This document shows, in pieces, positions 3,173 through 60,753 of a DNA stretch of 64,000 nt. Under the pieces are notes generated by a model. The model made no database searches. It had not been told where the DNA came from and worked only from the letters and a program-made list of their open reading frames with translations. Every line of letters starts with the position of its first letter. The stretch's first letter is position 1. The position numbers were made by a program, and so were the translations under genes. The DNA is from a virus, in IMG/VR virus record IMGVR_UViG_3300027908_000006, positions 1 to 64,000 of that record; one strand, written 5' to 3'.

Positions 3173-5784
3173 CTCCTTGCTACGCCAATCCCTTCCGTGT
3201 TATGCTGTCCAGCATGGCAAAAGAAGTTTATTATTTCCCGACCGATTGGTCCAACGGCGCCCCGGACGATCCGAAGAGTCGCGGGCTGCTCGGCAGCCTG
3301 CGCCGCTTCTTCGGAGGCTGGTTCGGACCCCGCTATCGAACGGCGGCGCTGGAGTACGTCACCGAGGAGAAGGTAGCGTCCTCCCCGCAGAACGTGCGGT
3401 TGCCGTGGTTTCTACCTTACGAGGAGTACGACACCGGCACGGGCGAGACGCAGAACATGCGCAACCTGTACCGCAAGGGACTCGCCTTTCCGCCAGTGAA
3501 GGCCGCCCTCTTGAATAAGGTCTTCGGCGTCGCGGCCCTCAAGTTGCAAATCCACCCAGCGGACAAGCGGAACGATTACGACCAGCAAGTAGCGGATGGG
3601 GTGCGGTGGAACCTGGTGCGGCGGCTGGGTGGCGGCGTGCCGCGATTGGCGTGGAACCTGTTGACTCCGGCCTGTCTGGATGGCTACTCCGTCAACGAGA
3701 AGATTTGGCAGACGCAGGACACGGGTAAGTACGCCGGGAGGATCGCGCTGACGAACCTCAAGATGAAGGACACGGGGTTTGATTTGGTCCCGAAGGTGGA
3801 CCAGTTCAGCAACATCACGTCCTTCCTGGGGCTGCGCTACAACGGAGGCAAGGAGTTCCACCCGTCCGACTTCGTGACCTACGCGCACCTCAAGATGTAC
3901 GAGCGGCCCACGGGCCTCTCGGACCTGCGCGCTGTATTCGAGGCGATGTGGCTCTACGACACCGTTTGGAAGCTGCGCAGGATCGGCCTGACCACGAAAT
4001 CCTTCCCGTTCCTGAAAGGGATGTACGAGCAGGAGAGTCAGCAGCCGGGATTGAATGCGGCCTTGCGGAAGGCGAAGTCGCTCTCCTTCCTTACCGTGCC
4101 GAAGGGTTGCATGGTGGAGGCAATTGAACTGGCGGGCGGCAGCGCCGATGAGTTTAAGAACTGTATTCAGGACTTGCGGGAAGAGATTCTGATGGGGATT
4201 ACCGGGGCGTTCATGCACCAGATGGGGGCCGGTCAGAACGTCAAGCGCGGCAGTTCCGAGAAGGCGGAAAGCGTCTCAGACCTCTTCAAGTGGTTCTTGG
4301 CCGAAGAGGTGTGCGGACTCCTGAACAACGAGGATACCGGCGTCATCAAGGAGATGGTGGACTTAAACCACGTCGTCAGTGAGTACCCCACGGCGTCTCT
4401 CGACGCGATCAGCTGGGAGGAGATGCTCCAATTCGCCAACATCATCGACAAGGCGCGGACGTGGGGGATGCCGCTCTCGAAGGAGTGGTTGTCCGAGAAG
4501 TTGTCCCTGGAAGCTCCGCACGCGGATACGCCGGGAGACGCCTTGGCACCAGCACCGACGCCGGGTGCGCCTGGTTCCACAAATGGAACCAGCCCGCCAA
4601 ACGGGACGCCGTCGGATGGTGGAGGTTCCACTGTATCCCCCGATACAGTTGACAGTCCCAAGGGCGGTACGGGCGGTTCTCCCATCGACGCGGAACCGCA
4701 TAAGTTCTCAGAAGAGTACGTCGCGGAACTGGAAACCTTCGCCGCCAAGCACGGTTGGGAACCGGCGGTGCGGATGGGACACCGTGGCGGACTCAAGGGC
4801 GGTCCCGCCCGCGCCCAATCGCTTACCAAGGAGGAGATGCACAAGATCGCCGTCCAGGGCGGCAAGGCGCGGCAGGCGGGTGAACACGCTATCGGGGTAA
4901 AGAAGAACGCGGACGCTGCCACGGTGAGCGTCTTGACGGCGCAACCGAAGGTGCAGCAGTTCGCGGGCGGCTTTGACGAATCTCTTCATCCGCGAGACGA
5001 TCACGGGCAGTTCGTGGACAAGGGTGAGTTGGAGGCTGCGAAGGCCGATCTGGGCAAGGCACAGGAACTCCGCAAGAAAGTGACGAAGCCAGTGGAGCGG
5101 GCCAAGTTGGAGCAGCACTTGAAGGGGGCGGACTGGTACGGGAAGAAGGGTGGCGCGAAGCAGTCTGTGCCCTATCCTGAAACCGCTGGACACGCACTCG
5201 AGCAGGGAAAGAAGTTCGGCGTGCGGATCGTCGAAGGGGCGAGCGGTACATCGGTGAGCAAGGATCAACTGCACTCCGTCAATGAGCAAGTGGCCAAGAT
5301 TCCGGCGAAGGCATTAGAGGCCGTCACCAAGGCGGGGAGCGGTATAGACGTGGTGGGTGGCAAAGGCATCACGGATCACCCGCACAACGCTCACTTGAAA
5401 GGTGTTGTACCTCGCGGCTGGGAGAAGACCGGCAAGACATGGGACGACGTGCCCGGCGGCGGCGCGCAACATCCCAACCAGCGGACCATCATCGCGGCTC
5501 GTGGTGCTGCCAATCCTTACAGTCACGGTAGCGCCAATCTGGTCCTGCACGAACATGGGCACACCGTCGATGCGTGTTCACGAGACAGCAACAACCAGCG
5601 TCCTTCCGATCAGGCGGACTGGAAAGCAATCCACGGCAAGGTGAAGTGGCCGTCACCGTACCAGCAAGCTTATGCCGAAGAAGCATGGGCTGAGAGTTTC
5701 GCCAAGATGTACAATGGCGAGCAGACCCGCGCCGCACTGCCGCCCGAAGTGCAAGCGTATTTCACACAGAGGTTCGGCACATGA
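3136..5784 (+). CDS. Portal protein (Mu gp29/DUF935-like by context) fused to a C-terminal HExxH metalloprotease domain (PPEP / anthrax-LF-like, M34-type)
   Basis: 882-aa ORF after the terL block. The N-terminal ~460 aa is portal-sized and in portal position within a Mu-like head module. A Pro/Gly/Ser/Thr linker starts at ~4540, followed by LHPRDDHGQF (HPRD = 4987-4998). Then RGWEKTGKTWDDVPGGG...LVLHEHGHTVD (HEHGH = 5548-5562) and YAEEAWAESFAKMY. Start is uncertain: GTG 3136 overlaps the upstream gene; ATG 3202 and 3214 are alternatives. Confidence 0.7.
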   Translation: MAKYQIHLATRLTPCYANPFRVMLSSMAKEVYYFPTDWSNGAPDDPKSRGLLGSLRRFFGGWFGPRYRTAALEYVTEEKVASSPQNVRLPWFLPYEEYDTGTGETQNMRNLYRKGLAFPPVKAALLNKVFGVAALKLQIHPADKRNDYDQQVADGVRWNLVRRLGGGVPRLAWNLLTPACLDGYSVNEKIWQTQDTGKYAGRIALTNLKMKDTGFDLVPKVDQFSNITSFLGLRYNGGKEFHPSDFVTYAHLKMYERPTGLSDLRAVFEAMWLYDTVWKLRRIGLTTKSFPFLKGMYEQESQQPGLNAALRKAKSLSFLTVPKGCMVEAIELAGGSADEFKNCIQDLREEILMGITGAFMHQMGAGQNVKRGSSEKAESVSDLFKWFLAEEVCGLLNNEDTGVIKEMVDLNHVVSEYPTASLDAISWEEMLQFANIIDKARTWGMPLSKEWLSEKLSLEAPHADTPGDALAPAPTPGAPGSTNGTSPPNGTPSDGGGSTVSPDTVDSPKGGTGGSPIDAEPHKFSEEYVAELETFAAKHGWEPAVRMGHRGGLKGGPARAQSLTKEEMHKIAVQGGKARQAGEHAIGVKKNADAATVSVLTAQPKVQQFAGGFDESLHPRDDHGQFVDKGELEAAKADLGKAQELRKKVTKPVERAKLEQHLKGADWYGKKGGAKQSVPYPETAGHALEQGKKFGVRIVEGASGTSVSKDQLHSVNEQVAKIPAKALEAVTKAGSGIDVVGGKGITDHPHNAHLKGVVPRGWEKTGKTWDDVPGGGAQHPNQRTIIAARGAANPYSHGSANLVLHEHGHTVDACSRDSNNQRPSDQADWKAIHGKVKWPSPYQQAYAEEAWAESFAKMYNGEQTRAALPPEVQAYFTQRFGT

Positions 5785-6477: not shown

Positions 6478-6545
6478 CGTTGCTTGAGGTTACGCTGGTG
6501 CCGCTCCTGAAAGGAAAGTCCAATATCGGACATAACGTGTCCGAG

Positions 6546-8108
6546 ATGGAAAAGGCTGGCCACCCCAAGGACCAAAGCATCGCCGCCGCTCTCCGCACGG
6601 CAGGCGTGCCGCCGAAGAAGAAGCACGCGGAGTCTGGTGCGCGATCGCGCACCAGCACGGAGCGAGCGCCGGAGTGGGAGAAGTTGCGGGACGTGGAAGC
6701 CTTCTCCACAGGTCGGAAGCGGGACAAGGAGTACACGCCGGAAGACTTAAAGGACATCGTGGACAACTTCCACAAGTTTGGCAAGGGCCAGCGTCCCGGC
6801 TTTGACGTGCCCGGCGTGTACGGGCACAAGGAGAAGACCCCTGCGGATCAAGAGCGCTTTCTGGAGGACACCTCCATACCGGCGAAAGCGTGGGTGGAGG
6901 ACGCCAAGACGGACGGCAAGAAACTCTACCTCGACCTGCGGGCCTCACCGGAGTTGGCCAGGGCCATCCGGGACGGCAACTACGGCGCTGTCTCGATCGA
7001 GATTTACGACAAGCCGCCGCAAGGGATTCCAGGCAAAGGCAAGATGATGCGCCGTCTCGCCTTCCTGGGCGGGGAGATACCGCAGGACAAGAATCTCCGG
7101 CGACTGCCGATGCCGGAGAAGTACAGCGAGGCTCAGCGGCGACGGTTAGTGCAGCGCCACTTACTCACGACTCACCTGCGGGACTGTGTTCCGCACGAAG
7201 GATACGTCACCTGTTTCTCCGAGGTTTCCATGATGCAAGAGACGATGCCGGGTCAGGGGATGAAACCCGGACGAGACGAGATGATGCAGAAGCTCGCCGA
7301 GAAGGGCGTCAACCCCGACGCGATGAAGGCCGCTCCCGACGAGTGTCTCGCCGAGATGTGCCGCATGGCCGAGGACATGGGCAAGAAGGACGAACTCGAT
7401 TGGGACCACGAGCCGGAACCGCCCAAGAGTCCCGAAGAGAAGAAGATGTACGGCGAACTGCACAAGAAGATGAGTGCCTACGCCGAGAAGCTCAAGAAGT
7501 TCACCGAAGACCCACTCCCAGGCGTCACCGCCGTCCACCCCGGCCCGTCCGGTTCCGAGAAGTCCGGCCTGGGCGGTCCCTCTGAGGACGTGAAGAAGAT
7601 GAGCGAGATGGTAGCCAACCTCATCGACCAGAAGTTCGCCATTCTCCGTGCCGAGATCAAGCCGGTCGTGGACCGGGCACAGGAGTCCGATCAACTCGAA
7701 GTCTTCAACTTCTGCGAGGTTCAGGTCAAGGCGGGCAAGCTCACCGCCGCACAGGTGGACCGCAAGGACAAGTTCTCCGTTCTCAATGAACTCTTAGACC
7801 TGGACAACACACAGGTCGTGGACAAGTTCTCGGAGAACGGTCGAGAGATCGCGTTGACCAAACGCCGTAAGCGGATGGAACAGATCAAGCGCGGCCCGAC
7901 TGTCTGGAAGAACTCCGAAGTGGCTCACGGCGGTGATCTAAACACGGTGCTGGGCGGCACGGCAGACCAGGACGAGGCCCGGATCGAGCGGTTCTGCGAG
8001 GACAAGGGTATCTCTAAGGAATCGCACCGCAAGGAGATCAAGGAAGGGTGGCTCGCCTTCCGCAAGGCCAACCCGGACGGCAGCGTGGTCGATTACCTGA
8101 GCGTGTAA
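6546..8108 (+). CDS. Prohead protease / scaffold protein (Mu gpI-like)
   Basis: Lies between the portal and capsid genes. The N-terminal third (YTPEDLKDIVDNFHKFG, GVYGHKEK, AKAWVEDAKTDGKKLYLDLRASPELARAIRDGNYGAVSIEIY) follows the Mu-like prophage protein I pattern as I recall it. The C-terminal half is a charged coiled coil, scaffold-like. Start set at ATG 6546 (GTG 6537 possible) because the track start 6435 reads through the terminator hairpin. Confidence 0.55.
   Translation: MEKAGHPKDQSIAAALRTAGVPPKKKHAESGARSRTSTERAPEWEKLRDVEAFSTGRKRDKEYTPEDLKDIVDNFHKFGKGQRPGFDVPGVYGHKEKTPADQERFLEDTSIPAKAWVEDAKTDGKKLYLDLRASPELARAIRDGNYGAVSIEIYDKPPQGIPGKGKMMRRLAFLGGEIPQDKNLRRLPMPEKYSEAQRRRLVQRHLLTTHLRDCVPHEGYVTCFSEVSMMQETMPGQGMKPGRDEMMQKLAEKGVNPDAMKAAPDECLAEMCRMAEDMGKKDELDWDHEPEPPKSPEEKKMYGELHKKMSAYAEKLKKFTEDPLPGVTAVHPGPSGSEKSGLGGPSEDVKKMSEMVANLIDQKFAILRAEIKPVVDRAQESDQLEVFNFCEVQVKAGKLTAAQVDRKDKFSVLNELLDLDNTQVVDKFSENGREIALTKRRKRMEQIKRGPTVWKNSEVAHGGDLNTVLGGTADQDEARIERFCEDKGISKESHRKEIKEGWLAFRKANPDGSVVDYLSV
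6634..6655. repeat. 22-bp perfect palindrome CTGGTGCGCGATCGCGCACCAG, copy 1
   Basis: Self-complementary 22-mer inside the protease/scaffold ORF, encoding GARSRTS. An identical copy lies at 45046-45067. Confidence 0.95.
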
Positions 8109-9056: not shown

Positions 9057-9602
9057 TTAAACAACGTGTTGCCAGATTCGCCCTTGAGCGATGGCATCAA
9101 TCAGCGGTTTGCTGACGTTGTGCTGCTGCGCAAGGACCACTCGCCTTACTCCTGCCGCCAGATCAACGCGAATCTGCCGAACTTTGTCATCATCCAATTT
9201 AGCAAGGCCGTTGCGGACGCCTACTCCACCGTGGCAATGGGAGCGTCGGCCTTTCTTGAGACAGTCGCGGAAGTTGTCACCAGCCGTGCCAAGAAAGAGG
9301 TGTGCCGGGTTGACGCAGGCGGGGTTGTCGCCGCCCGGACAGTTGTGGCAGACTTTCAGGCCGGATGGGATTGGTCCGTGAGTCAGCACCCATGCCAGAC
9401 GATGAGCGTAGATAGCGCGGTGCCGCCGTCGGTCGCTCGCCTCTCGTACTGTGCAAGCCGTGTAGAACCACCCGTAACCGAAGGGGTGGTGTCCTGCCTT
9501 GTCGTTCTGGAATATCCAGCACTCGCCCTTGATGACTTTGGACCAGAATCGCTCGGCTTCGTGGACGGGGAATGGAAACGGGATAGGATCAACCTTGGAC
9601 AT
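9057..9602 (-). CDS. HNH homing endonuclease
   Basis: 181 aa on the opposite strand to all neighbours. AHRLAWVLTHGPIPSGLKVCHNCPGGDNPACVNPAHLFLGTAGDN is an HNH_3-type motif. Confidence 0.8.
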   Translation of the reverse strand: MSKVDPIPFPFPVHEAERFWSKVIKGECWIFQNDKAGHHPFGYGWFYTACTVREASDRRRHRAIYAHRLAWVLTHGPIPSGLKVCHNCPGGDNPACVNPAHLFLGTAGDNFRDCLKKGRRSHCHGGVGVRNGLAKLDDDKVRQIRVDLAAGVRRVVLAQQHNVSKPLIDAIAQGRIWQHVV

Positions 9603-32391: not shown

Positions 32392-32445
32392 GCCGTGACT
32401 TTCGACGATATCCATCGCCCCCTATCCCAAAACAAAGGAGCATCC

Positions 32446-33744
32446 ATGAAGCGTGTGATTCTGTTCTCTCCTGTTATCGCTTTCGTGTTCGTCGCGTTGT
32501 CGTTCGTCGATGCCCGGCAGGACGTTGAGAAGAAAGTGCCCGGCTGCTGCCCCGGCGTCCAACAGGTTGCCCAGGTCGATCCGAAGAAGGCCGACGACAA
32601 GGCCAAGCCAAAGGCCGACCTCAAGAAGCACGGCCGCGGTTTCAAGTTGCCACCGAAGCATGTCCGCGACGCGATCCACCGCATCAGCGAGGCGAAGTAC
32701 GGTCACATTCGCAAGGCGTTGCCGGTTGCCACGGCAGCGGTCTATGACGCCCGCGTGCAAGGTGTCATTCCGCCCGTGGGCAATCAAGACGGCTGCGGTG
32801 ACTGCTACATGTGGTCAGGCTGTAAGGCTGGCGCGTCGGCACAGATGGTTGCGGGAGTCGTGCCGAAGGATGGCAAGTTTATGCTCGCGCCGTCTTTCGG
32901 CCTCGACTGTCACCCAGAGCTAGGAGGTTGTGATGGAGGCGACGAGCAACAGGTTGCTCAGCTGATTGCCAGTGCTGGCTGGCCGTCTGTGGCTCAGTAT
33001 GGTGGCGACGGCTACACACCGGGAACTTGCAAGCCGACGACAGGCATGACGCTGTACACGCTGTCATCCGTGATGATGGTCAGTCCGTCGTCGGGAATCG
33101 CGTCAACCCAGGACATCAAAAACGCGATTCAGGCATACGGCTTTTGCAGCATCGCGGCGGCGGCTGGCAGTGATTGGGACAACCTCGGCGGCGGCTGCAC
33201 GATCACCGGCAGCAGCACGGACATCAACCACGCGATTGGCTATGTTGGGTGGGACGACAACCATGACAACGGGGATGGTTCCAAGGGAGCTGGCATCATG
33301 CAGAACAATTGGGACACCAGTTGGGGCTGCAACTGTGCCAACACAGTCAATCCGAATCCGTCCGAGCCGGGTGGATATGCTTGGGTGAAGTGGGGTGCTG
33401 ACTCCGCAGGGACCGAAGCGTTCGTCTGCATCGCTGCCGCTGGACCTGTCCCGCCGCAACCGCCAGTGCCTCCCGTGCCGCCGATTCCCCCAACCCCGCC
33501 GACGCCGGGTATGAACCCCATCGTGTCGATCGTGGCGACGTTCCAAGATGGGACGACGCAGACGCTCATGGGTGTGCCAACGCCGGGCACGACCATCACG
33601 CCGACGACGACGTTGCAACAGCTGCTCGACATGATGCAGAAACCAATGGCGCCGCCGAAGAAGCCGGGACAAACCATGCTGGATCGACAACTGGAGTACA
33701 ACCGGCGCGAGTTGGAAGAGTCATTCGCCCCGGTGAAGCCATGA
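32446..33744 (+). CDS. Secreted papain-family (C1-like) cysteine protease
   Basis: AAAGGAG RBS and signal peptide MKRVILFSPVIAFVFVALSFVDA. Catalytic-type motifs NQDGCGDCYMWS (Cys), INHAIGYVGWDD (His) and MQNNWDTSWG (Asn/Trp). Followed by a PVPPQPPVPPVPPIPPTPPTPG linker and a short C-terminal domain. Confidence 0.65.
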   Translation: MKRVILFSPVIAFVFVALSFVDARQDVEKKVPGCCPGVQQVAQVDPKKADDKAKPKADLKKHGRGFKLPPKHVRDAIHRISEAKYGHIRKALPVATAAVYDARVQGVIPPVGNQDGCGDCYMWSGCKAGASAQMVAGVVPKDGKFMLAPSFGLDCHPELGGCDGGDEQQVAQLIASAGWPSVAQYGGDGYTPGTCKPTTGMTLYTLSSVMMVSPSSGIASTQDIKNAIQAYGFCSIAAAAGSDWDNLGGGCTITGSSTDINHAIGYVGWDDNHDNGDGSKGAGIMQNNWDTSWGCNCANTVNPNPSEPGGYAWVKWGADSAGTEAFVCIAAAGPVPPQPPVPPVPPIPPTPPTPGMNPIVSIVATFQDGTTQTLMGVPTPGTTITPTTTLQQLLDMMQKPMAPPKKPGQTMLDRQLEYNRRELEESFAPVKP

Positions 33745-35610: not shown

Positions 35611-36777
35611 ATGATCCTGACCTATTCCTACAAGCTGTATTTGAGCGCCACGCAAGAAAAGACTCTTGAGCGATGGTTGCGTACCTGTTGTTGGATTTAC
35701 AACCGCGCGTTGGAGCATCGCATTAAAGCGTACCAGCGGCGTAAGGAATCCGTCAGCTATCGGGATCAGCAATCATTATTGACCGAATGGCGTGGACGAA
35801 TGGGGAACTTGCGTCTTGTGCCGGTCGAATTCGAGCGCGATGCGTTGCGTCGGGTGGATCATGGTTTCAAGGCTTTCTTTCGACGACTAGCTGATGGGGA
35901 AAAGAAAGTCGGTTTTCCACGCTTTCGTTCGCACCGCAGGTATCGGTCGCTCGAATGTCTGTTTGTGCAACCGTACTTGCGTGGCGACAGAATTCGCATT
36001 CCGAACCTTGGTTTAGTCCGATGTCGTGGGCGACTCCTGCCCATTGGCAAACAACGGGGCTTACGGATTATCCATCGGGAGGGCGGCTGGTACGCGCAGA
36101 TACTCTTGGACAATGGCGTACAGGTTCCTCCGTGCAAAACGCAAACTAGCATCGGTATCGACGTGGGCCTGACTTCGTTCGCTACGCTCAGTAACGGTGA
36201 AAAGGTTGATAATCCGCGTTTTGGGCGAAAGGCTGAACGTAAGATATGTTCTCTGCAACGGCGGGTATCGCGGCGACAGGAAGGCAGTGCCAACCGCCGC
36301 AAGGTTGCTCAACGGCTGGCAAGGCAACACGAGCGAATCGCATCTCAACGACGTGCGTTCTGCCATGTCGAAGCGCGGAAGATCGTCAACCGTTTCAACC
36401 TGATTGCTTTCGAGAGCCTAAACATCACCGATATGGTGAGAAACCATAAGTTTGCGCGTTCGGTTATGGACGCGGCTTGGGGCTTCTTCGCCTTCTGCCT
36501 GATCTACAAAGCTGCAAATGCTGGTGGTCAGGCAGTTGGCGTCGATCCTCGCAGGACAAGTCAGGAATGTCCGTGGTGTGGCAAGATCGTCCCGAAGAAA
36601 CTTTCTGAGCGTCGTCACCAGTGCGAATGCAAGCCGGGTGTGGTCATCGACAGGGACCACGCGGCGGCTCTGGTGATTCTTGCTCGCGCCGTTGCTGGTA
36701 AGCGCGGCGAATCGCTTGTGGAGGAATCGACCTCTACCGCGCCATCTGTTGGTGGTGTCGGCATGTCGTTCCGGTGA
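35611..36777 (+). CDS. tnpB: TnpB (OrfB) RNA-guided endonuclease
   Basis: 388 aa. RuvC-I IGIDVG (D184), RuvC-II IAFESL (E268), zinc finger CPWCG-x14-CEC, RuvC-III VIDRDHAAALVI (D347/D349). N-terminus YKLYLSATQEKTLERWLRTCCWIYNRAL is typical of OrfB_IS605. Confidence 0.85.
   Translation: MILTYSYKLYLSATQEKTLERWLRTCCWIYNRALEHRIKAYQRRKESVSYRDQQSLLTEWRGRMGNLRLVPVEFERDALRRVDHGFKAFFRRLADGEKKVGFPRFRSHRRYRSLECLFVQPYLRGDRIRIPNLGLVRCRGRLLPIGKQRGLRIIHREGGWYAQILLDNGVQVPPCKTQTSIGIDVGLTSFATLSNGEKVDNPRFGRKAERKICSLQRRVSRRQEGSANRRKVAQRLARQHERIASQRRAFCHVEARKIVNRFNLIAFESLNITDMVRNHKFARSVMDAAWGFFAFCLIYKAANAGGQAVGVDPRRTSQECPWCGKIVPKKLSERRHQCECKPGVVIDRDHAAALVILARAVAGKRGESLVEESTSTAPSVGGVGMSFR

Positions 36778-40689: not shown

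Positions 40690-40706
<17 letters not shown>
40410..40706 (+). CDS. Hypothetical protein
   Basis: AGGAGAG RBS; 98 aa. RIWRWEKAFSLNEMANHG...SRISEP is a recurrent phage family of unknown function. Confidence 0.45.
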
Positions 40707-41118
<412 letters not shown>

Positions 41119-43717: not shown

Positions 43718-44620
43718 ATGCCTCTGATTTGCTACACGCCCCGGAAGTTCAGCCGAAACTCTCAGACGCTCATCGACCACGCGAATACGATCTTCGCGGA
43801 GTATCAGGCCCAAGGGTATGTGCTTACCCTCCGTCAACTTTTTTACCAGTTCGTGTCCAGGGACTTGATTCCGAACACCATGCCGAGTTACAAGAATCTC
43901 GGCAGCGTCATCAATGACGCGCGCTTGGCCGGGCTGGTCGATTGGGCTTTGATGGAAGATCGGACCCGGAACCTCAAGAGCCAGCCGTGCTGGGCTTCTC
44001 CGTCGTCGATCATCTCGGCTTGTGCGGATCAGTTCCGCATCGACAAGTGGGCCAGTCAGACTCACCGGCCTGAAATCTGGATTGAGAAAGACGCGCTCGC
44101 TGGTGTGTTCGAGCGGGTCTGTCAGGAGTTGCAAGTGCCCTACTTCTCTTGCCGTGGCTACACGTCGCAGTCGGAAATGTGGGTTGCCGGTCAGCGGTTG
44201 AAAGGCTGGCTCAAGGCCGATCAGAAGCCGGTTATCTTCCACTTCGGTGACCACGACCCCAGCGGGATCGACATGAGCCGCGACATTACGGAGCGGCTTG
44301 AACTGTTCATGGGCGGCGTGCAGTTCAACCGATTGGCCTTGAACATGGAACAGGTGGAAGAATACGAACCACCGCCGAACCCGGCGAAGATCACGGACAG
44401 CCGCGCAGCTGAATACATCCGCGTTTACGGCCGCGAGTCGTGGGAGTTGGACGCACTCCCGCCGGATGTACTGGCCGGTCTGGTGCGAGACTCCATCCTC
44501 TCCATCCGCGACGAGTACGCCTGGCAAGAGGCGGTCGAACGGGAAGAGACGCATCGTCGGCAGCTGGCGGCGGTATCCGAACAATGGGCTACTATCACGG
44601 AGAATCTATCCGATGAATAA
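43718..44620 (+). CDS. Spo11 / TopoVI-A / JetD-like winged-helix + Toprim protein
   Basis: AGGAG RBS. LTLRQLFYQFVSR (5Y-CAP-like Tyr), EIWIEKDALAGVFE (Toprim Glu) and HFGDHDPSGIDM (DxD). Confidence 0.55.
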   Translation: MPLICYTPRKFSRNSQTLIDHANTIFAEYQAQGYVLTLRQLFYQFVSRDLIPNTMPSYKNLGSVINDARLAGLVDWALMEDRTRNLKSQPCWASPSSIISACADQFRIDKWASQTHRPEIWIEKDALAGVFERVCQELQVPYFSCRGYTSQSEMWVAGQRLKGWLKADQKPVIFHFGDHDPSGIDMSRDITERLELFMGGVQFNRLALNMEQVEEYEPPPNPAKITDSRAAEYIRVYGRESWELDALPPDVLAGLVRDSILSIRDEYAWQEAVEREETHRRQLAAVSEQWATITENLSDE

Positions 44621-45629
44621 GTCTCTGCTACTCAGTGAAATCAGGATCGACGGCGGCACACAGATGCGCGTAGAGATCGACCAAGAGTACGTCGAAGAAC
44701 TGGCCGATGTGCTACGCGGCGGCGGGAAACTTCCGAATGCCGTCGTCTTCCACGACGGGGCGCATTACTGGCTGGGGGGTGGCTTCCACCGCTACATCGG
44801 TCACGAGAAAGCCGGAATACCTGCAATGCCCTGCGAGGTCCGCGTAGGCACTCAGCGTGACGCGATTATCTTCGCGGCAGGTGACAATTCCGACCACGGC
44901 TTGCGAAGGTCCAATGAGGACAAGCGTAAGGCCGTGACGGCGCTGCTAACTGACGAGCAGTGGTCGCAGGCGAGCAACCGATGGGTTGCGGAGCAATGTA
45001 AGGTCGGGGATCAGTTGGTTGCCACTGTCCGAGAAGAGATAGAGGCTGGTGCGCGATCGCGCACCAGCGACAATAACGGATCGACTAACGGGCAAACTCG
45101 CACGGATAGGCGTGGTCGTCAGCAACCGGCGAAGAAGCCGAAACCCGGTCGTAAACTCTGTCCGGCCTGCACGCGGAAAGGCGTTCGCGCCAACTGTCCC
45201 GATTGCCGCGACCTGAACCGCAAGGAAGGTAAGCCCAACAAAAAGGCAGGCACGGCTACAGACCCCAGCGGTGAGAAGGACTGTTTCGGGAACGAGGTTC
45301 CGAAGCGCTGCCGCGATGCTCTCTTCGATCCGTGGATACAGGACACCTTCGACATGCTTGCGGCGATGAACGACAAGATCCTCGCCGCACGCATTCCCGA
45401 CAGTATCGAGAAGCGGAAGAAGCGTTACCCGTTCTTTGACGCGAAGGACATAGCCGACGGCGCGATCTTCGTCCAGCAATACCTTGACAAACTTCTTGAC
45501 CACGTTAAGGAAAATCGCCCTGCCGCTGTCTGTCCAATGTGTCAAGGGAAAGGCTGCTCTGACTGCCGAAGTTCTGGTCTTGTGTCCCGCAATCTTTATC
45601 AGCAGTTGAAGGACAAGTTGAAATGTTGA
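44613..45629 (+). CDS. ParB/Sulfiredoxin-domain protein with a Cys-rich C-terminal region
   Basis: IRIDGGTQMR...VVFHDGAHYWLGGGFHRYIGHEKAG is the ParB N-terminal domain pattern. A basic linker carries the 22-bp palindrome. CPAC/CPDC and CPMCQGKGCSDC clusters follow. Confidence 0.65.
   Translation: MNKSLLLSEIRIDGGTQMRVEIDQEYVEELADVLRGGGKLPNAVVFHDGAHYWLGGGFHRYIGHEKAGIPAMPCEVRVGTQRDAIIFAAGDNSDHGLRRSNEDKRKAVTALLTDEQWSQASNRWVAEQCKVGDQLVATVREEIEAGARSRTSDNNGSTNGQTRTDRRGRQQPAKKPKPGRKLCPACTRKGVRANCPDCRDLNRKEGKPNKKAGTATDPSGEKDCFGNEVPKRCRDALFDPWIQDTFDMLAAMNDKILAARIPDSIEKRKKRYPFFDAKDIADGAIFVQQYLDKLLDHVKENRPAAVCPMCQGKGCSDCRSSGLVSRNLYQQLKDKLKC
45046..45067. repeat. 22-bp perfect palindrome CTGGTGCGCGATCGCGCACCAG, copy 2
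   Basis: Identical to 6634-6655. It sits in the same reading phase and again encodes GARSRTS, inside the ParB-like gene. Confidence 0.95.
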
Positions 45630-49227: not shown

Positions 49228-49544
49228 ACCGCGAAGCCTTCACCGACGACGACATTATCACGGCTCTGGAAACGCTCCTTGCCGAGACAGAAGAATGCCG
49301 CCTGGACGTAGCCGTGACTCTTGGCAACATCGGCCACGATGCGAAAGCCATGCGAAGGGCACTTAATTCCGGCGAGGAACCCATGTTGCCGCTTGTCGTG
49401 CCGGAGGACTGGAAAGCCAAGAAACTGCTGAAACACTTGTCCTTGATCTACTGGAATGCGGTTCAGGCGCTGGAATGCCTCGAACCGGCTAAACCCAAAC
49501 CAGCCGTCAATGGGACGGCGAAACAACCGGAGAAACGAACGTGA
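49224..49544 (+). CDS. Hypothetical protein
   Basis: ATGA overlap; 106 aa. Confidence 0.4.
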   Translation: MNREAFTDDDIITALETLLAETEECRLDVAVTLGNIGHDAKAMRRALNSGEEPMLPLVVPEDWKAKKLLKHLSLIYWNAVQALECLEPAKPKPAVNGTAKQPEKRT

Positions 49545-50278
49545 ACCGCCGCGAAGCATTGCTGACGATGACCGCGAGCTTAGTCGCCTTCATCCTGCCG
49601 TCGCCGCGAAAGCGGATCGACCTGAAAACCTTCTGCTCACGCGAGGCACGGCCAAAGTATGACATGCGCCTGCCCTACGAATTTCAGGAATACACCTACG
49701 CGACGAACGGGATCGTCTGCGTCCAGGTGCGGCCACAGCTGGGCGACGTGGTAGACCACAAGGGAAAGGTTCCGCCGTTCGATATGCTCTCGTGGAATCA
49801 CGATCGCTTACAGTGCTGGCGTCCGTTGCCGAACCTGTCACCGATTGTCGCTGCCGATTCGGATTGCCCTGTCTGCGATGGGTACGGGCACACTGGAAAT
49901 GGACCTTGGCAGGAGTGCGAGGCGTGTCAGGGCGTTGGGAATGTCTGGGTCGGGAGCAACTATCATATCTCGTATCCGAAGCAGTGCCCAAAGTGCAAGG
50001 GATCTGGCCATTTCCCGCCAACGGGATCGAGGCCGTGCCCGAACTGCAACGGCAACGCTATCGGTTCTTTCCCGGCGTTCGTGGAGATCGAGGGCGACTA
50101 CTTCAACGCGGCGATTTATCGCAAGGTGCAAGCCCTGGACGGCGAGTTTTGCCGCGACTGCTGGCAGGGAATGGGCAAGTTCCCGCTGTTGAAATTCCGC
50201 TTCGACGGCGGCTGCGGACAGATGATCGGCGTGGAAACCGCAAGGGCCGTCCAACGGATTAAGGAAGCCAAGAGTTGA
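49541..50278 (+). CDS. Zinc-knuckle protein, paralogue B (Tat-like N-terminus)
   Basis: MNRREALLTMTASLVAFILP, YTYATNGIVCVQV, then CPVCDGYG, CEACQGVG, CPKCKGSG and CPNCNG (DnaJ-type CxxCxGxG). Confidence 0.45.
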   Translation: MNRREALLTMTASLVAFILPSPRKRIDLKTFCSREARPKYDMRLPYEFQEYTYATNGIVCVQVRPQLGDVVDHKGKVPPFDMLSWNHDRLQCWRPLPNLSPIVAADSDCPVCDGYGHTGNGPWQECEACQGVGNVWVGSNYHISYPKQCPKCKGSGHFPPTGSRPCPNCNGNAIGSFPAFVEIEGDYFNAAIYRKVQALDGEFCRDCWQGMGKFPLLKFRFDGGCGQMIGVETARAVQRIKEAKS

Positions 50279-52250: not shown

Positions 52251-52475
52251 ATGAAGCGCTGTCGAACGTGCGGCAAGACAAAGCCGCTCAGTGACTTCCC
52301 GCTCACCACTCCTCACCGGATAACTGGCGCGCGGTGGGAGCGAAACACCTGCCGAGTCTGCACGAATAAACGCCAACTGGAGTTGAAGAAGATACGGGAA
52401 GCAAAGGCACGCTTCCGCCGGTCCCAAGAGAAGAGGTTGCTCGGAACCAGTCCCAATCCTGCAAGTACGGGGTGA
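52251..52475 (+). CDS. Small zinc-ribbon protein
   Basis: CRTCGKTKPLSDF...CRVC; its end lies inside the 28-bp junction repeat. Confidence 0.4.
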   Translation: MKRCRTCGKTKPLSDFPLTTPHRITGARWERNTCRVCTNKRQLELKKIREAKARFRRSQEKRLLGTSPNPASTG

Positions 52476-52478
52476 ACC
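52451..52478 (+). repeat. 28-bp junction repeat TCCCAATCCTGCAAGTACGGGGTGAACC, copy 1
   Basis: Spans the stop of 52251-52475 and the RBS of 52479. The second copy at 53239-53266 has one mismatch. Confidence 0.9.
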
Positions 52479-53067: not shown

Positions 53068-53271
53068 ATGATGGGCATTCTCTACCGGATCGACGACGGG
53101 ATTGCGGAGGACGACGCCTGCGCAATGCTGGACGGCATCCGCGAAGAACTGGCCGAGTTCGCGGCTATGGTCCAGAGAGGGGAGCGGTCGCTCTACAGCG
53201 GAAGTGGAAGAAGAAACGGGAGGCTCTCAAGTGAACAATCCCAATCCTGCAAGTACGAGGTGAACCGATGA
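53068..53271 (+). CDS. Hypothetical protein
   Basis: ATG 53068. Its C-terminal codons lie in the 28-bp junction repeat, but in a different frame from copy 1. Confidence 0.35.
   Translation: MMGILYRIDDGIAEDDACAMLDGIREELAEFAAMVQRGERSLYSGSGRRNGRLSSEQSQSCKYEVNR
53239..53266 (+). repeat. 28-bp junction repeat, copy 2
   Basis: TCCCAATCCTGCAAGTACGAGGTGAACC, immediately before ATG 53268. Confidence 0.9.
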
Positions 53272-54351: not shown

Positions 54352-54891
54352 ATGCCTGAGTTCGATTCTACGCTTGAGTACCGCGATGTTCCAGAGTTTC
54401 CCGGCTATCGCGTCGGTTCAGACGGCTCTGTATGGAGCGGCAAAACTGGCTCCTGGAAAGAACTGAAAGGTAGCCGTGTCGGAGAAATGGGCTATCGAGC
54501 AGTCTTGCTCAACGCTACAACCAGCCGCAAGGTCCACCGCCTTGTCTTGGAAGCGTTCGTCGGTCCATGCCCAGAAGGAATGGTGGCGGCCCATCATCCT
54601 GATCCCAACCCATTGAACTGTTCGCTTTCAAACTTGCGTTGGGCAACTCGGAAAGAAAACGAACAGGACAAGTTCAGACAGGGACGCCGCAAGTGCGTGT
54701 ACTTGGAAAAGAAACGCGCCGGGCAAGCCCAACGGCTCGCCGCACGGTTGGAGAGGAAAGCGGCGAGGGCGCTACTGCCAAGTCGTCAAGTCCTCTGGCA
54801 ACGAAAGATGCTCGCTCAGGGACGATGTGTTCAATGTGGCAAGAAACACAGCGGCAACAAAAAGCGTTGCGGATCGTGCCTTGCGAAATGA
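54352..54891 (+). CDS. HNH homing endonuclease with NUMOD4-like N-terminus
   Basis: YRDVPEFPGYRVGSDGSVWS...GYRAVLL...VHRLVLEAFVGPCPEGMVAAHHPDPNPLNCSLSNLRWATRKEN. Confidence 0.75.
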   Translation: MPEFDSTLEYRDVPEFPGYRVGSDGSVWSGKTGSWKELKGSRVGEMGYRAVLLNATTSRKVHRLVLEAFVGPCPEGMVAAHHPDPNPLNCSLSNLRWATRKENEQDKFRQGRRKCVYLEKKRAGQAQRLAARLERKAARALLPSRQVLWQRKMLAQGRCVQCGKKHSGNKKRCGSCLAK

Positions 54892-55158
54892 AGCTGATAC
54901 TCGCCCGCACGGTAGGGTACTCGACACACCGAGAACGTGTCGTACCTCAGCAGGACCGCTGCAAACCGCGGCGGATAAAGGCTATGTCAGCCAAATGACT
55001 AGGGGCCGCTCTTGGTGAGCGGCGAGCGTTGCTGTCGTAAGCAACCCCGGCCTGTTGAGATTGACCTTCGCTTCCTCTTCCCCTTCAAAGGGGGTAAGGG
55101 GGTTTATCCGCCTTGCAGTTCCAACAAGTAGCCGCTCAGCAGTGAGCGAGGGGGCAAC

Positions 55159-55635
55159 ATACTGACAATCTCTCTGTGGCAACCCTGGGCAACTCTGCTC
55201 GTGAACGGGGAGAAGCGGATCGAAACCCGCTCTTGGCCGTTTCCGCGTCCCATGCCGTGTGTTCTCGTAATACACGCCGCGAAAAAGTGGAATACGGAAC
55301 TGGAAAGCATGACTACCATTCCGCCGTTTCAACCAGCGTTACAATGGAGCCTGCGGAAACAATTCGGCCGGTATCTGCACGAGGACTTCGACCGCTCTTT
55401 CGGTGCTGTCGTTGGTATCGTCCGAGTGGCTTCTTGTGTACCTACCGAGACGTTGTTCCGCGAGGTTGTCGGGCCAAAGGAACTGGCGTTCGGTGATTAT
55501 TCACCGGGTAGGTTCGCGTGGATTTGCGACCGCTTCCACGCTCTGCCGGTTCCTGTTCCTTGCAAGGGTCGGCAAGCTTTGTTTCAGTGGCTACCGACAC
55601 CGGATGTAATCCTTCCTGAGTGGGCAACTGAGTGA
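55159..55635 (+). CDS. ASCH-domain protein
   Basis: (I)LTISLWQPWATLLVNGEKRIETRSWP...FGAVVGIVRV...GRFAWICDRFHALPVPVPCKGRQALF is the ASCH pattern. The homologous N-terminus lies upstream of the track GTG 55201. In-frame candidates are ATA 55159 and CTG 55162, with no ATG. Confidence 0.6.
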   Translation: MLTISLWQPWATLLVNGEKRIETRSWPFPRPMPCVLVIHAAKKWNTELESMTTIPPFQPALQWSLRKQFGRYLHEDFDRSFGAVVGIVRVASCVPTETLFREVVGPKELAFGDYSPGRFAWICDRFHALPVPVPCKGRQALFQWLPTPDVILPEWATE

Positions 55636-55649
55636 GCGAGGGGGAGCCG

Positions 55650-56000
55650 ATGAGCGACCTGAGCCAGCTGAGTCCGGCGCCGTGGCGAGTCGAAGAGGGA
55701 TGGAGTGACATTGTCGGCAAGGTCTGGCAAGTGTTTGGTCCGTCTGGTGTTGTCGGCAAATTCCTTTCGGAAGAAGATGCCAATCAATTCGTTCTGGCCC
55801 GCAACGCCTTAGAGGTGATGATGTGGCGCGGGTGGTACGCTTATCCGTCGAATCTGATGGATACTGTGTTGTGGACAGTTGCGGGGATGCCGATAGCAGT
55901 AGAACGAGAATTCGGCAAGTGTCAATATCGTGACCCGTTCACGGCTCTGGTCGAAGCGGAAAAGTGGTACAGGAACCATATTCAAGCCGCTCAGCAGTAA
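55650..56000 (+). CDS. Hypothetical protein
   Basis: ATG 55650 within the junction repeat; 116 aa. Confidence 0.45.
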   Translation: MSDLSQLSPAPWRVEEGWSDIVGKVWQVFGPSGVVGKFLSEEDANQFVLARNALEVMMWRGWYAYPSNLMDTVLWTVAGMPIAVEREFGKCQYRDPFTALVEAEKWYRNHIQAAQQ

Positions 56001-56018: not shown

Positions 56019-56180
56019 ATGATCGGGAAAAGAAAAGCTAAAGCCGCTACTCCAAAATGCAGGCGGTGCGGAGACAAACCGCGTGGGGTACATTCTCCCA
56101 AAGGTGGCTGGGTGACGTGTCCCGACTGTGGAGGCGCGGCTCTGAAACGACTTCTTGAAGGAAACAAAGCTCAGCAGTGA
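56019..56180 (+). CDS. Small zinc-ribbon protein (below the ORF-track size cut-off)
   Basis: 53 aa: MIGKRKAKAATPKCRRCGDKPRGVHSPKGGWVTCPDCGGAALKRLLEGNKAQQ. Bounded by junction repeats. Confidence 0.4.
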   Translation: MIGKRKAKAATPKCRRCGDKPRGVHSPKGGWVTCPDCGGAALKRLLEGNKAQQ

Positions 56181-56196
56181 GCGAGGGGGAAGGAAG

Positions 56197-56430
56197 ATGA
56201 AAGTTTGGGAAGCAACTATGATCGTGCTAAGGAAAACGGACAATCCAGCGGTTATGTGGGGAGATGAAGGATTACTCCATCTAATCGCCGATGAGTTGGG
56301 ATGGAAACACGACGCCTGGAAAACGAGTGAGCGAGTTCTGGCCGCTTTACGGAAGACGCCGGGGCCGTTGAGTAAGGGATTGACTCGCTGCCACAATCGC
56401 CTTGTGTCTATTTTTAGAATGCCTGAGTGA
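56197..56430 (+). CDS. Hypothetical protein
   Basis: ATG 56197 after the GAGGGGGAAGGAAG RBS; 77 aa. Confidence 0.45.
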   Translation: MKVWEATMIVLRKTDNPAVMWGDEGLLHLIADELGWKHDAWKTSERVLAALRKTPGPLSKGLTRCHNRLVSIFRMPE

Positions 56431-56444
56431 GCGAGGGGGAGCCG

Positions 56445-56570
56445 ATGGCACATTTGTTTCTGGCAGGAATGTGGTTGAGCGGTATCGACAACTCGGTGTT
56501 CGTGATCTATTACCGCGATCTGCCGAGGTTGCCGAGGTTGGCGTATCAAGGTCCGATCTGCCTGAACTGA
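56445..56570 (+). CDS. Very small hypothetical protein
   Basis: 41 aa starting at the ATG of the fifth junction repeat. Contains a 9-bp tandem duplication (GCCGAGGTT twice). Confidence 0.25.
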   Translation: MAHLFLAGMWLSGIDNSVFVIYYRDLPRLPRLAYQGPICLN

Positions 56571-58728: not shown

Positions 58729-58988
58729 TGACCTACTCTCTCCGAAGGATACTGACCATGACCATGACGGAGTATCGGGACTACTGGCGATTGTGCGAGA
58801 CCGCTGGCCTCGCGCTGATCTGCCTCCGCGATCTACTCGCTCACCCGTCCCTTGACCTGGGGGACGGAGAGAGAGCCGAGTACGAGCTGGACTGTCAGGC
58901 ACTAGCCGACAGTCTGCCCGCGAAATGCCGCGCGGTCACGCGACCGACCGCGGCGCCGACAACCGAAGTGATTGATTGCCCCTTCTGA
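58728..58988 (+). CDS. Hypothetical protein
   Basis: TAATG overlap; 86 aa. Confidence 0.35.
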   Translation: MTYSLRRILTMTMTEYRDYWRLCETAGLALICLRDLLAHPSLDLGDGERAEYELDCQALADSLPAKCRAVTRPTAAPTTEVIDCPF

Positions 58989-59085
58989 GCGCTGCACGTT
59001 GCAGCGCTCCCTACCGTGGCCACGACGCACGAGACTGCCGATCCGCAGTGGCGCAGGACGGCACCTATACGAGAGGACGGATACT

Positions 59086-60114
59086 GTGATTACGATTACC
59101 GTCAGACTGAGTGAGGCAGGCCGCAAGGCGGACTTGCTCTCCGGCGGGACCGGAGAGCAGAAGCGGACTCTGACAGTCCCGCACACCGATCCGAGCTACG
59201 CCGGACTGCTGGCCGTCGCGCAACTGTGCGACGGTGGCGCGCTGATCAATCAAGACCACTCCGGCGCGCCGGAGTACGACGCGCTCCCGACGCCTGCCGA
59301 TGTACTCGCGGGTATCTGGACCCGCGAGCAGGCGGAAAAGTACAAGGTAGCGGCTCAGCTGGCCGAACGGCGGGAGGCCACGCTCGCCGTGCTGCGCGAG
59401 CGCAAGGTGTCAAGCGGTAGTGGCCACGTCGCACAGTACCGGCCAGAGGCCGTGACCTATGTCCAGCTGACCCCGGACTGGCCGTATTACGCGGACCAGT
59501 CCGTGAAGGAGTCGCCCGAAGCGGTCGCGTGGGTCGCAGAATTGGACGCGCAGAACGCGACCGCCAGAGCAGCTGCCGAAGTGGAGAGCGCGGCGAAACT
59601 GGCCGCGCTCCAGGTGGAAGCGGACGCCAAAGCCGCGCGGATTGCGGCGAAACGGGCAGAGCGCGGCCTCGCGGATGGTGACCTCGCGCTGAATATCGAG
59701 GACGGCGCGCTGACGCAGGTTCCTGCTGGCTGTTGGCAATCGCATAGCCGCGGCAAAAACTGGCTCGCCATTATCGGCACTAGCCCAGCGTCCCCCGGCG
59801 GACTGGCCCGCGACTTCGCGCCGAAAGCGAAGGGGGACAGCTACTATCTCCTGCCGGACTGGACCGCAGGGGACGCGCTGGAATTCGGGGCTGACTACTA
59901 TACCGGCAGCGGCCGGAAGAGCGCGAAGCGCTGGTACGGATACGTCGTGCGGATTGAGGCGGATTACGTCGTGCTGCGCGAGTGCAGCACGGGTAAAGCG
60001 GCGGTGAAAGCCGGTGCCGCGCACCGCAAGACCCTGACACCGGATACGCAGGTAGCCGGAGCTATCCTCCGCGTCAACGGAGAGGGCGCGATCGTTGAGA
60101 CGCCCGCAGAGTAG
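59086..60114 (+). CDS. Hypothetical protein
   Basis: GTG 59086 after GAGAGGA; 342 aa with a central Ala-rich coiled coil. Confidence 0.45.
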   Translation: MITITVRLSEAGRKADLLSGGTGEQKRTLTVPHTDPSYAGLLAVAQLCDGGALINQDHSGAPEYDALPTPADVLAGIWTREQAEKYKVAAQLAERREATLAVLRERKVSSGSGHVAQYRPEAVTYVQLTPDWPYYADQSVKESPEAVAWVAELDAQNATARAAAEVESAAKLAALQVEADAKAARIAAKRAERGLADGDLALNIEDGALTQVPAGCWQSHSRGKNWLAIIGTSPASPGGLARDFAPKAKGDSYYLLPDWTAGDALEFGADYYTGSGRKSAKRWYGYVVRIEADYVVLRECSTGKAAVKAGAAHRKTLTPDTQVAGAILRVNGEGAIVETPAE

Positions 60115-60212
60115 TTTCCGCGTCCGCTCCCCTCACAGTACGGGAGCGGACGCCTTACCGCTGGGGACTGTCCCCAGCGGTCGCACGGAGAAAACCATAC
60201 GGAGTACACACG

Positions 60213-60437
60213 ATGGATAGTCCCCTTGTCCCAACCGGGCAAATCGAATGGCTCGTCGCCCGCATACACGTCGGCACGCCGCGCGCAGCCGTAGTCCGTG
60301 ACTTCGTCCGTCGCATGCGCCGCAAGGATGGTGTCCGCGGCTATGCGTTCTCCAAACCGTTCCGCAAGGGATGCTACCGCGCTGCCCTCGCGGCGCATGA
60401 AGCCAATCGGCAGCTGTGCCGCGATTTCCGCCTTTGA
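60213..60437 (+). CDS. Hypothetical protein
   Basis: 74 aa. Confidence 0.35.
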   Translation: MDSPLVPTGQIEWLVARIHVGTPRAAVVRDFVRRMRRKDGVRGYAFSKPFRKGCYRAALAAHEANRQLCRDFRL

Positions 60438-60489
60438 TCCACACCACCAGTCCGGCGCCTCAGGGCGCCGGACGCATTGGAGTAACAAC

Positions 60490-60684
60490 GTGAAACAGTC
60501 CGAGTATCATCATTGTGGCACCTGCTCGTGCTGCGGCGGTCGCATACCCTGCGGCGATACGAACATTGTGCGCTGGACGCGGTCCGGGGAGTGTCCAGGC
60601 AGCGTCAATCACGACGGTACTTGCGGCGCCATCCGTAGCGCCAAACCACGGAAAAAAGAGAAACCCGGCGCCTGTCATAATTAA
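60490..60684 (+). CDS. Small Cys-rich protein
   Basis: GTG 60490; HHCGTCSCCGGRIPCG. Confidence 0.35.
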   Translation: MKQSEYHHCGTCSCCGGRIPCGDTNIVRWTRSGECPGSVNHDGTCGAIRSAKPRKKEKPGACHN

Positions 60685-60753
60685 CCTTGTTCCCCACGGG
60701 CGCGGCAACCGTTGCCGCGCCTCTCCACTGTCGCCCCGACAGGAGTACCACAA

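Follow-up and report, generated by a model that had tools for sequence, protein, structure and literature searches.

A long palindrome shared by the genes of an orphan ParB-like protein and a head protease in an uncultured phage: a candidate ParB-family site

INTRODUCTION

ParB-family proteins that act on palindromic sites are already known from mobile elements. KorB of plasmid RK2 binds about twelve dispersed 13-bp odd palindromes (OB), the parS of Bacillus subtilis lies inside spo0J, and in phage lambda the ori site bound by O is in the linker-coding part of the protein's own gene. Here we describe positions 1 to 64,000 of the IMG/VR virus record IMGVR_UViG_3300027908_000006 (hereafter the window), a stretch of phage DNA in which a perfectly self-complementary 22-mer, CTGGTGCGCGATCGCGCACCAG, occurs once in a head maturation protease gene and once in the gene of an orphan ParB-like protein, whose cognate site it may be. 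BisD of the element ICEclc binds two identical 23-bp palindromes (11-bp arms, GAGCTATCCCCnGGGGATAGCTC) in two unrelated genes (PMC12409273). KorB acts in long-range silencing as a sliding clamp (PMC11790492), prophage N15 carries four separate inverted-repeat centromere sites for SopB, IR1-4 (PMC7205306), and phage SPP1 has a gp38 site, oriL, in gene 38 and a second site, oriR, in the late region (PMC6316719).

The window is like BisD/bisS in that an orphan ParB-like protein with a GxxR motif is encoded on a mobile element together with two identical long palindromes in unrelated coding sequences. BisD, however, is a CTP clamp and long-range activator whose bisS sites lie 2 kb apart with none inside bisD, whereas here a phage is the element, one site occupies a position within the gene of the ParB-like protein that is conserved in the family, and the C-terminal zinc-finger domain is unrelated. 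With KorB, a regulator, the ParB-like protein shares a ParB-family N-terminal domain followed by a helix-turn-helix (HTH; Foldseek match 8qa9), but the OB sites are identical 13-bp sequences. KorB also has partners, KorA and the ParA protein IncC, and nothing like KorA or ParA turned up in this phage. The ParB fold and a palindromic site read by a dimeric HTH are features of ParB/parS, Noc/NBS and N15 SopB as well; the differences from ParB/parS are the absence of a detected ParA, a site of 22-24 bp as opposed to 16 bp, and an in-gene position conserved throughout the family. Lambda O/ori and SPP1 offer the likeness of a site in the linker-coding DNA of the protein's own gene, beside the specificity domain, and of a second site in the late region, although theirs are iteron arrays with an AT-rich element and non-ParB initiators, in contrast to the single palindrome, ParB fold and lack of an AT-rich element seen here.

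In the literature that we searched, two aspects appear not to have been described. One is that, throughout a large phage family, the gene of a ParB-like protein holds a site at a constant position; the other is that a further copy has been seeded, in frame, within an essential head gene. Nothing direct was found there on phage ParB-like proteins whose own genes contain a site; the phage ParBs associated with 5mYOX were considered and set aside, as they form a different subfamily without a DNA-binding domain.

RESULTS

Two copies of one palindrome

The two copies of the 22-mer lie at 6634-6655 and 45046-45067, and both begin at codon position 2, the peptides being E-S-G-A-R-S-R-T-S in the head-protease gene (6498-8108) and E-A-G-A-R-S-R-T-S in the ParB-like gene (44613-45629). 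A first-pass annotation of this DNA had remarked on the exact self-complementarity, the double occurrence and the common phase and peptide, all of which stand, as does its placing of the copies in linkers: each is within or at the edge of a predicted disordered linker. It had also judged chance recurrence to be negligible, in agreement with the 0 matches expected from shuffled sequences. There is no third copy with up to 3 mismatches in the window, the closest further match there having 7, and no extra copy in the 5.35 kb of the genome outside it. The flanks, on the other hand, are not unrelated as had been supposed. The common unit is 27 nt long, GAG[T/G]CTGGTGCGCGATCGCGCACCAGC (in outline GAG[T/G]CTGG...CCAGC), and its two occurrences, copy 1 at 6630-6656 (residues 45-53 of the head protease) and copy 2 at 45042-45068 (residues 144-152 of the ParB-like protein), are identical at 26 of 27 positions. 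Copy 1 holds the palindrome at its 22-nt length, while copy 2 widens to a 24-nt perfect palindrome, GCTGGTGCGCGATCGCGCACCAGC, at 45045-45068. The other two phases of the 22-mer would read L-V-R-D-R-A-P or W-C-A-I-A-H-Q, and the phase used gives the most linker-friendly peptide, G-A-R-S-R-T-S. Because the phase is also that of a 27-nt unit copied en bloc, its sharing by the two genes needs no special cause.

Several independent metagenomes, from soil and elsewhere, yield the phage genome as a circular assembly of about 69,353 bp, of which the window makes up 64 kb. The independent assemblies were compared over 13-21 kb each, both sites being covered, and are 100% identical throughout, so that no variant genome without the protease-gene copy was seen among the assemblies compared; protein P0136 differs solely in the translation of its start codon. 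Palindromes are scarce in this genome, perfect ones of at least 12 nt numbering 7 against about 20 expected, with CGATCG found 15 times (39 expected), TCGCGA 0 times (28) and CCCGGG 0 times (18), and the long palindromes are thus retained against a general trend.

Across the whole window, further 6-bp palindromes have observed/expected counts of 0/13 (CTGCAG), 0/12 (GGTACC), 1/25 (GTCGAC) and 6/52 (GCCGGC), and this very strong avoidance suggests heavy restriction pressure from the host. In the MEGAHIT assembly ERZ923594, contig k127_1640466 ends at window position 6673, 18 nt downstream of copy 1, which may be coincidental or may stem from how the palindrome or repeat behaves in a de Bruijn graph at small k.

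The ParB-like protein

The gene that hosts copy 2 (44613-45629, plus strand) encodes 338 aa, made up of a ParB/sulfiredoxin (Srx) N-terminal domain, an HTH, a linker, and a C-terminal helical and CxxC zinc-finger domain. The protein matches phrog_1033 (E=1.9e-15) and, weakly and in precomputed annotation, PF02195; its profile matches in the PDB are to ParB and sulfiredoxin, and no NCBIfam family matches it. A GxxR motif is present as G57-F-H-R60, of which G57 and R60 are invariant or nearly so among the aligned relatives; the reading G-F-H-R is Srx-like (FGGCHR-type) and not GERR. An AlphaFold2 model with a mean predicted local distance difference test score (pLDDT) of 86 places the ParB/Srx domain at residues 1-90 and, directly after it, the DNA-binding helices 101-113, 122-129 and 133-153 (pLDDT >90), followed by disorder at 154-162. 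Foldseek aligns 140-168 columns, spanning the N-terminal and DNA-binding domains, to structures of ParB, Noc and KorB (8qa9). The palindrome encodes residues 145-152, that is, the end of helix 133-153 adjoining the disordered 154-162.

No ParA, CbiA or AAA_31 was found in the precomputed gene lists or Pfam scans, in which coverage of small open reading frames (ORFs) was partial, and we therefore treat the protein as an orphan ParB-like protein and not as the partner in a type I ParABS partition system as defined. An integrase was likewise missing from the gene lists and Pfam scans of the genome. Among GenBank phages there are only three matches to the protein, all uncultured; one GenBank homologue is annotated as a StrR-family pathway regulator.

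The gene directly upstream (43718-44620) matches phrog_6247, 'DNA topoisomerase' (E=2e-111), and its product contains GDHDPSG, by eye a toprim-like motif. A protein of similar size (297 aa) is encoded directly upstream of the ParB-like gene in the related locus L101 too, and a functional pairing of the two products is possible. The DnaJ-type CXXCXGXG zinc finger of a 245-aa protein encoded at 49541-50278 resembles the C-terminal zinc finger of the ParB-like protein.

A palindrome after the helix-turn-helix across the family

Copy 2 is not an insertion, since the linker of the ParB-like protein in the window is the shortest among close relatives. The symmetry, moreover, recurs at the homologous position where the sequence does not. 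Locus L107, whose protein is 44% identical, has a different 22-nt perfect palindrome there (abutting arms GACGTGGGAGT and ACTCCCACGTC) in the same phase, and L101 (46% identical protein) has AGGTTCGA-ATTC-TCGAACCT. We extended the comparison to 80 IMG/VR loci encoding ParB-like relatives, which with L101 and L107 make 82, and counted palindromes with perfect arms of at least 8 nt and a spacer of at most 4 nt in the 270 nt directly after the HTH. There are 49, against 3.8 predicted from the locus-wide density. With arms of at least 9 nt, palindromes occur in 36 of 71 dereplicated linker intervals and in 41 of 3276 controls (1.3%), a difference with a Fisher p of about 1e-43 that overstates the independence of what are related loci. 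The linker palindromes are 17-29 nt long, start 2-10 codons past the recognition helix and differ in sequence between phages.

Selection would appear to act on the nucleic acid and not on the peptide, for all three codon phases occur among the linker palindromes and a single DNA palindrome, ATCTTCGGAA(A/T)TTCCGAAGAT, gives IFGNSED or SSEIPKI depending on the homologue. The symmetry is thus no by-product of an ancestral peptide under synonymous drift, which the first-pass annotation had named as a possible outcome of aligning orthologues; it is the DNA symmetry that is conserved, and no peptide. Complementarity extends to the centre (spacer 0-1) in 38 of the 49 linker palindromes (78%) as compared with 52% of control palindromes, and such pairing favours two-fold symmetry of the duplex because a hairpin loop would not require it.

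Sites and recognition helices also vary together. Among 38 distinct proteins, half-site similarity is correlated with HTH identity (partial Spearman 0.147, permutation p about 0.02) and not with identity in the remainder of the N-terminal domain. By eye, every (D/H)KT(V/I) recognition helix is paired with a GGAA(A)TTCC core, xPFV helices go with cores of the type G(T/G)(G/A)(A/T)A(A/T)C, and HHEMV with TCTGGCGG.

The head-protease copy and a candidate third site

Copy 1 lies in a gene for a 536-aa head maturation protease/scaffold protein (6498-8108, plus strand), assigned by phrog_976, by the gene call in locus L109 and by orthologue alignment. All seven orthologues that span the site (58-65% identity) lack 9-11 residues at exactly this point, and the protease-gene copy is a lineage-specific in-frame insertion of 27-30 nt. 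The window reads CAC GCG GAG [TCT GGT GCG CGA TCG CGC ACC AGC ACG GAG] CGA GCG CCG, and in the relatives a short ...GAG/GAA AAG... stretch stands in place of the bracketed codons. The inserted residues, 45-53, fall within a predicted disordered linker (residues 36-57, pLDDT <50) that joins an N-terminal two-helix unit, similar to phrog_2423 (a separate 52-aa phage protein family), to the protease domain (phrog_976). The first-pass annotation had offered a frame-keeping palindromic insertion as one explanation for both copies; that description fits the protease gene, from whose orthologues the palindrome is absent, and fails for the ParB-like gene, in which the position of the palindrome is family-wide.

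A diverged candidate third site of 22 nt, CTGGTTCCA-CAAA-TGGAACCAG, is located at 4571-4592 in the Pro/Gly-rich linker of the portal protein. It has the outer CTGGT...ACCAG, the length and the codon phase of both 22-mers, and encodes G-S-T-N-G-T-S. The pattern CTGGT-N12-ACCAG has three exact matches in the window, and six with at most one mismatch against 1.8 expected; beyond the 4571 site, the window contains no degenerate extra copies or half-sites.

The host of this candidate site is a Mu-like portal gene (3202-5784, plus strand) with a C-terminal ATLF-like domain, which matches the anthrax lethal factor N/C domain (PF07737, E=6e-24) and is joined on by the Pro/Gly-rich linker. The same linker DNA holds a second hairpin, ACTGTATC-CCCC-GATACAGT, at 4630-4649. 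The closest orthologue of the protease belongs to locus L102, which has a comparable hairpin, also with a CCCC loop but with a compensatory change, at a non-homologous position; positional homology between the portal-linker palindromes of the window and L102 was rejected. L102 has a 24-nt perfect palindrome of its own, TCAACTTCCCGATCGGGAAGTTGA, at 3280-3303, centred on CGATCG and inside the C-terminal extension of the portal gene; the ParB-like gene is not on the L102 contig.

Extra copies in relatives

A scan of IMG/VR for two of the palindrome types turned up contigs with several copies, and the number of copies that a relative has of its own palindrome ranges from 1 to 5. A linker copy accompanied by a distant copy was found in L244, L246 (and L231), L259 and the contigs behind L200 and L239 and behind L205 and L257. 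Contig 3300028841_000043 (61 kb) has five copies: its linker palindrome recurs elsewhere together with 12 nt of flank, and there are three variants with a common TCACTG..CAGTGA whose inner arms differ and yet remain symmetric. Five copies are also carried by contig 3300044961_000340, as one in the linker, three in tandem and one more, with co-duplicated flanks. Some relatives have two or three tandem palindromes, 33-34 nt apart, in the linker itself.

Other extra copies are near head genes, on stretches whose coverage leaves the ParB-like gene outside. In L202 they follow the head-decoration gene and also separate the portal gene from the protease-major-capsid gene, and in L195 they are in the primase-portal and head-decoration-TerS intervals; in eight contigs they form tandem pairs, spaced 34 nt, that immediately precede a protease-capsid gene. 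The window fits this pattern, with its insertion at the 5' end of the protease gene and its third site in the portal linker.

StrR-family proteins are ParB-like HTH transcription activators that bind long inverted repeats, GTTCGAcTG-N11-CAgTcGAAC, whose outer arms are conserved. These arms presumably resemble the TCACTG-N11-CAGTGA of the relatives; the site in the window differs in its spacing, CTG-N16-CAG.

DISCUSSION

On balance we favour the view that the palindromes are cognate sites of the phage's orphan ParB-like protein, comparable to parS, bisS or OB, and that protein and site form a cassette. Of the three options put forward in the first-pass annotation, the one that these sequence comparisons support best is that permissive linkers tolerate a site bound by a dimeric DNA-binding protein, with the ParB-like protein as its likely reader. 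A ParB-like dimer would recognize the two-fold symmetric site through its HTH, as in ParB/parS, KorB/OB and BisD/bisS, and may then load or spread on DNA, organizing or regulating the neighbouring genes. One site would be kept within the protein's own gene, in the linker-coding stretch just past the recognition helix, where the linker would tolerate whichever peptide the palindrome dictates; by virtue of this location, the specificity determinant and its site would be inherited as one cassette in a mosaic genome. The second copy would have arisen by copy-paste of some 27-30 nt into the 5' end of the head-protease gene, where a disordered linker is encoded, and would have given a further site to the portal/protease junction, at which extra copies are found in relatives too. 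We infer the binding itself, for which the co-variation of HTH and site and the conserved linkage between site and gene are indirect evidence, any nucleoside triphosphate (NTP) dependence and the downstream role, for which regulation of the late or head genes, DNA organization, replication and packaging are the candidates.

A broader and distinctly more tentative proposal is that a large tailed-phage family, so far uncultured, carries a ParB/Srx-HTH cassette in which the site is hard-wired into the protein's own linker and diversifies with the recognition helix, while short copy-paste events seed the site at that end of the head module where portal and protease lie, in some cases in frame within essential genes. 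From there the protein would act through an NTP-gated clamp to control late genes, genome organization or packaging. Should the palindromes indeed be bound by the ParB-like protein, orphan ParB-family NTP switches acting as long-range regulators (KorB, BisD, VirB) would extend to widespread environmental phages, and the cognate site could be read off, as the palindrome after the HTH, for about half of the 71 distinct family members. Specificity and co-evolution would then be directly testable, and many orthogonal ParB/site pairs might become available for DNA labelling. A DNA-level signal would moreover have been written into protein linkers, even by in-frame insertion into an essential head gene, with overlapping codes shaping phage proteins.

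Several observations weigh against cognate sites of the ParB-like protein. The correlation between HTH and site is modest and confounded by phylogeny, the enrichment statistics count related loci as independent, and a perfect palindrome with arms of at least 8 nt is missing from about 45% of homologues. Many of the ATCT..AGAT pattern matches are in short-contig loci with no ParB-like gene on the stretch covered. At 22-24 bp the site is longer than the classical 13-16-bp sites of the ParB family. The symmetric variation of the inner arms within contig 3300028841_000043 resembles stem covariation, and the third site of the window, with its 4-nt unpaired centre, behaves similarly; covariation of this kind is a better fit to hairpin selection or quasi-palindrome correction than to one protein reading every base, and a mutational bias toward perfect palindromes is another possibility.

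This covariation gives weight to a structural alternative, which we nevertheless regard as rather unlikely, namely that intrastrand pairing is what has been selected and not a duplex site read by the ParB-like protein. The structure could be an attenuator, terminator or processing/stability element in RNA, or a DNA cruciform serving, for example, as substrate for the adjacent endonuclease VII or for RusA. All three sites of the window fold stably (RNA dG -21 to -25 kcal/mol), one relative keeps perfect symmetry at its sites despite differing inner arms, an endonuclease VII gene lies directly 3' of the ParB-like gene in both the window and L101, and many of the relatives' extra copies are intergenic and follow head-decoration or primase genes, the usual positions of terminators. 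The window sites, however, are not followed by a U-tract, 78% of the linker palindromes pair through what would be the loop, and a terminator would hardly account for a strong hairpin kept in an essential protease ORF and at a fixed position in one gene family. The co-variation of HTH and site, together with the identity or near-identity of sequences far apart, argues for sequence-specific recognition. Alternatively, the ParB-like protein might be an origin-binding protein or replisome organizer with a site in its own gene, the protease copy being a second origin or a fork barrier of the late region. We think this unlikely. The setting is suggestive, in that ERF, YqaJ, the toprim 'topoisomerase'-like protein, the ParB-like protein, endonuclease VII and a helicase make up a replication/recombination module and no other initiator was recognized in the gene annotations of the genome; as in lambda O, the site marks where a conserved N-terminal DNA-binding module gives way to variable C-termini, and the two or three tandem palindromes 33-34 nt apart in some relatives are iteron-like. 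SPP1 has its oriL within gene 38 and its oriR in the late region (PMC6316719). The linker of the window, by contrast, has a single palindrome and no iteron array, no AT-rich unwinding element is near (GC 0.55-0.65 in 60-nt intervals around 45046), no helicase loader or DnaB-type helicase was found, and the cumulative GC skew does not switch at either site.

The clean in-frame insertion of 27-30 nt in the protease gene, flanked by GAG...GAG, could also be the work of a miniature self-propagating palindrome unrelated to the ParB-like protein, similar to a Rickettsia palindromic element (RPE) or a miniature inverted-repeat transposable element, or else a homing footprint. RPEs are elements of 100-150 bp present in many copies and inserted in frame into protein-coding genes; the in-frame palindromic insertion is alike, whereas here there are two copies and 27-30 nt. 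The co-duplication of flanks with palindromes in relatives would suit a mobile palindrome, as would the presence in this phage of TnpB, two HNH genes and a LAGLIDADG intein, but we consider it very improbable. Only two copies exist per genome, an empty site is seen for the protease gene alone and the copy in the ParB-like gene is no insertion, and a mobile element does not keep to one position while its sequence changes from phage to phage. The 22-mer had 0 matches in IMG/VR and JGI metagenome contigs, scans that apparently did not include the window's own contig, and none of 185,579 reference genomes has it more than once. Among these species genomes its 18-mer core has 98 single matches scattered over unrelated taxa, many of them within longer terminator-like palindromes, and just one of the 98, a Streptomyces, carries the full 22-mer. 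Taken together, the scans point to neither a multi-copy mobile element nor a host genomic repeat; the latter, which the first-pass annotation had raised as a 22-mer ubiquitous in the host, was rejected on these counts. There remains the explanation by chance, by an assembly artefact or by a generic motif such as a restriction site or HIP1, the cyanobacterial GCGATCGC that is highly over-represented genome-wide. The core of the 22-mer is indeed GCGATCGC, which is both HIP1 and the AsiSI site, and one contig ends 18 nt from copy 1. Unlike HIP1, GCGATCGC is not enriched here (4 observed, 3.3 expected), and a cyanobacterial or HIP1 origin was rejected; with no match expected in shuffles, independent assemblies from different samples 100% identical across both sites and both ORFs reading through, this explanation is already effectively refuted.

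Other features of the window

Just before the ERF recombinase gene lies a 142-aa gene (about 40690-41118) in which a hexanucleotide repeat, (GCTCTG) x42, occupies 40850-41103 (Tandem Repeats Finder score 340); in frame this repeat encodes about 84 residues of Ser-Gly, and the contig of one independent assembly breaks within it, at window position 40900. The window starts inside the large terminase gene (1-1446; 6124-8934 in L109), which probably contains an intein with a homing endonuclease, as judged from the 936-aa product and its LAGLIDADG_3 match. Other mobile-element genes are a TnpB/IS605 OrfB-like gene at about 35611-36777 and HNH_3 genes at 9057-9602 (minus strand) and 54352-54891 (plus strand); the opposite-strand HNH gene is between a 228-aa head-region gene downstream of the protease gene and the major capsid gene.

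In the region of small genes there are exact direct repeats of 21 nt (GCTCAGCAGTGAGCGAGGGGG, 55134-55154 and 56169-56189) and 25 nt (CTGAGTGAGCGAGGGGGAGCCGATG, 55628-55652 and 56423-56447), and a 31-nt repeat with 94% identity (52448-52478 and 53236-53266); these pairs, about 0.8-1 kb apart, may be regulatory or belong to ribosome-binding regions. A cluster of long intergenic hairpins at 58987-60721, among them ACCGCTGGGGAC-T-GTCCCCAGCGGT (60157-60181) and GGCGCGGCAAC-C-GTTGCCGCGCC (60699-60721), directly follows stop codons and looks like terminators without U-tracts; this palindrome cluster, at 58.9-60.7 kb, was considered as a source of further sites and rejected, the hairpins being ordinary intergenic ones. 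An 18-nt perfect palindrome, ACTCCGGCGCGCCGGAGT, lies at 59258-59275 inside a 380-aa ORF. Near the tail/lysis region, a 449-aa protein (32395-33744) has a papain-family cysteine protease domain (PF00112).

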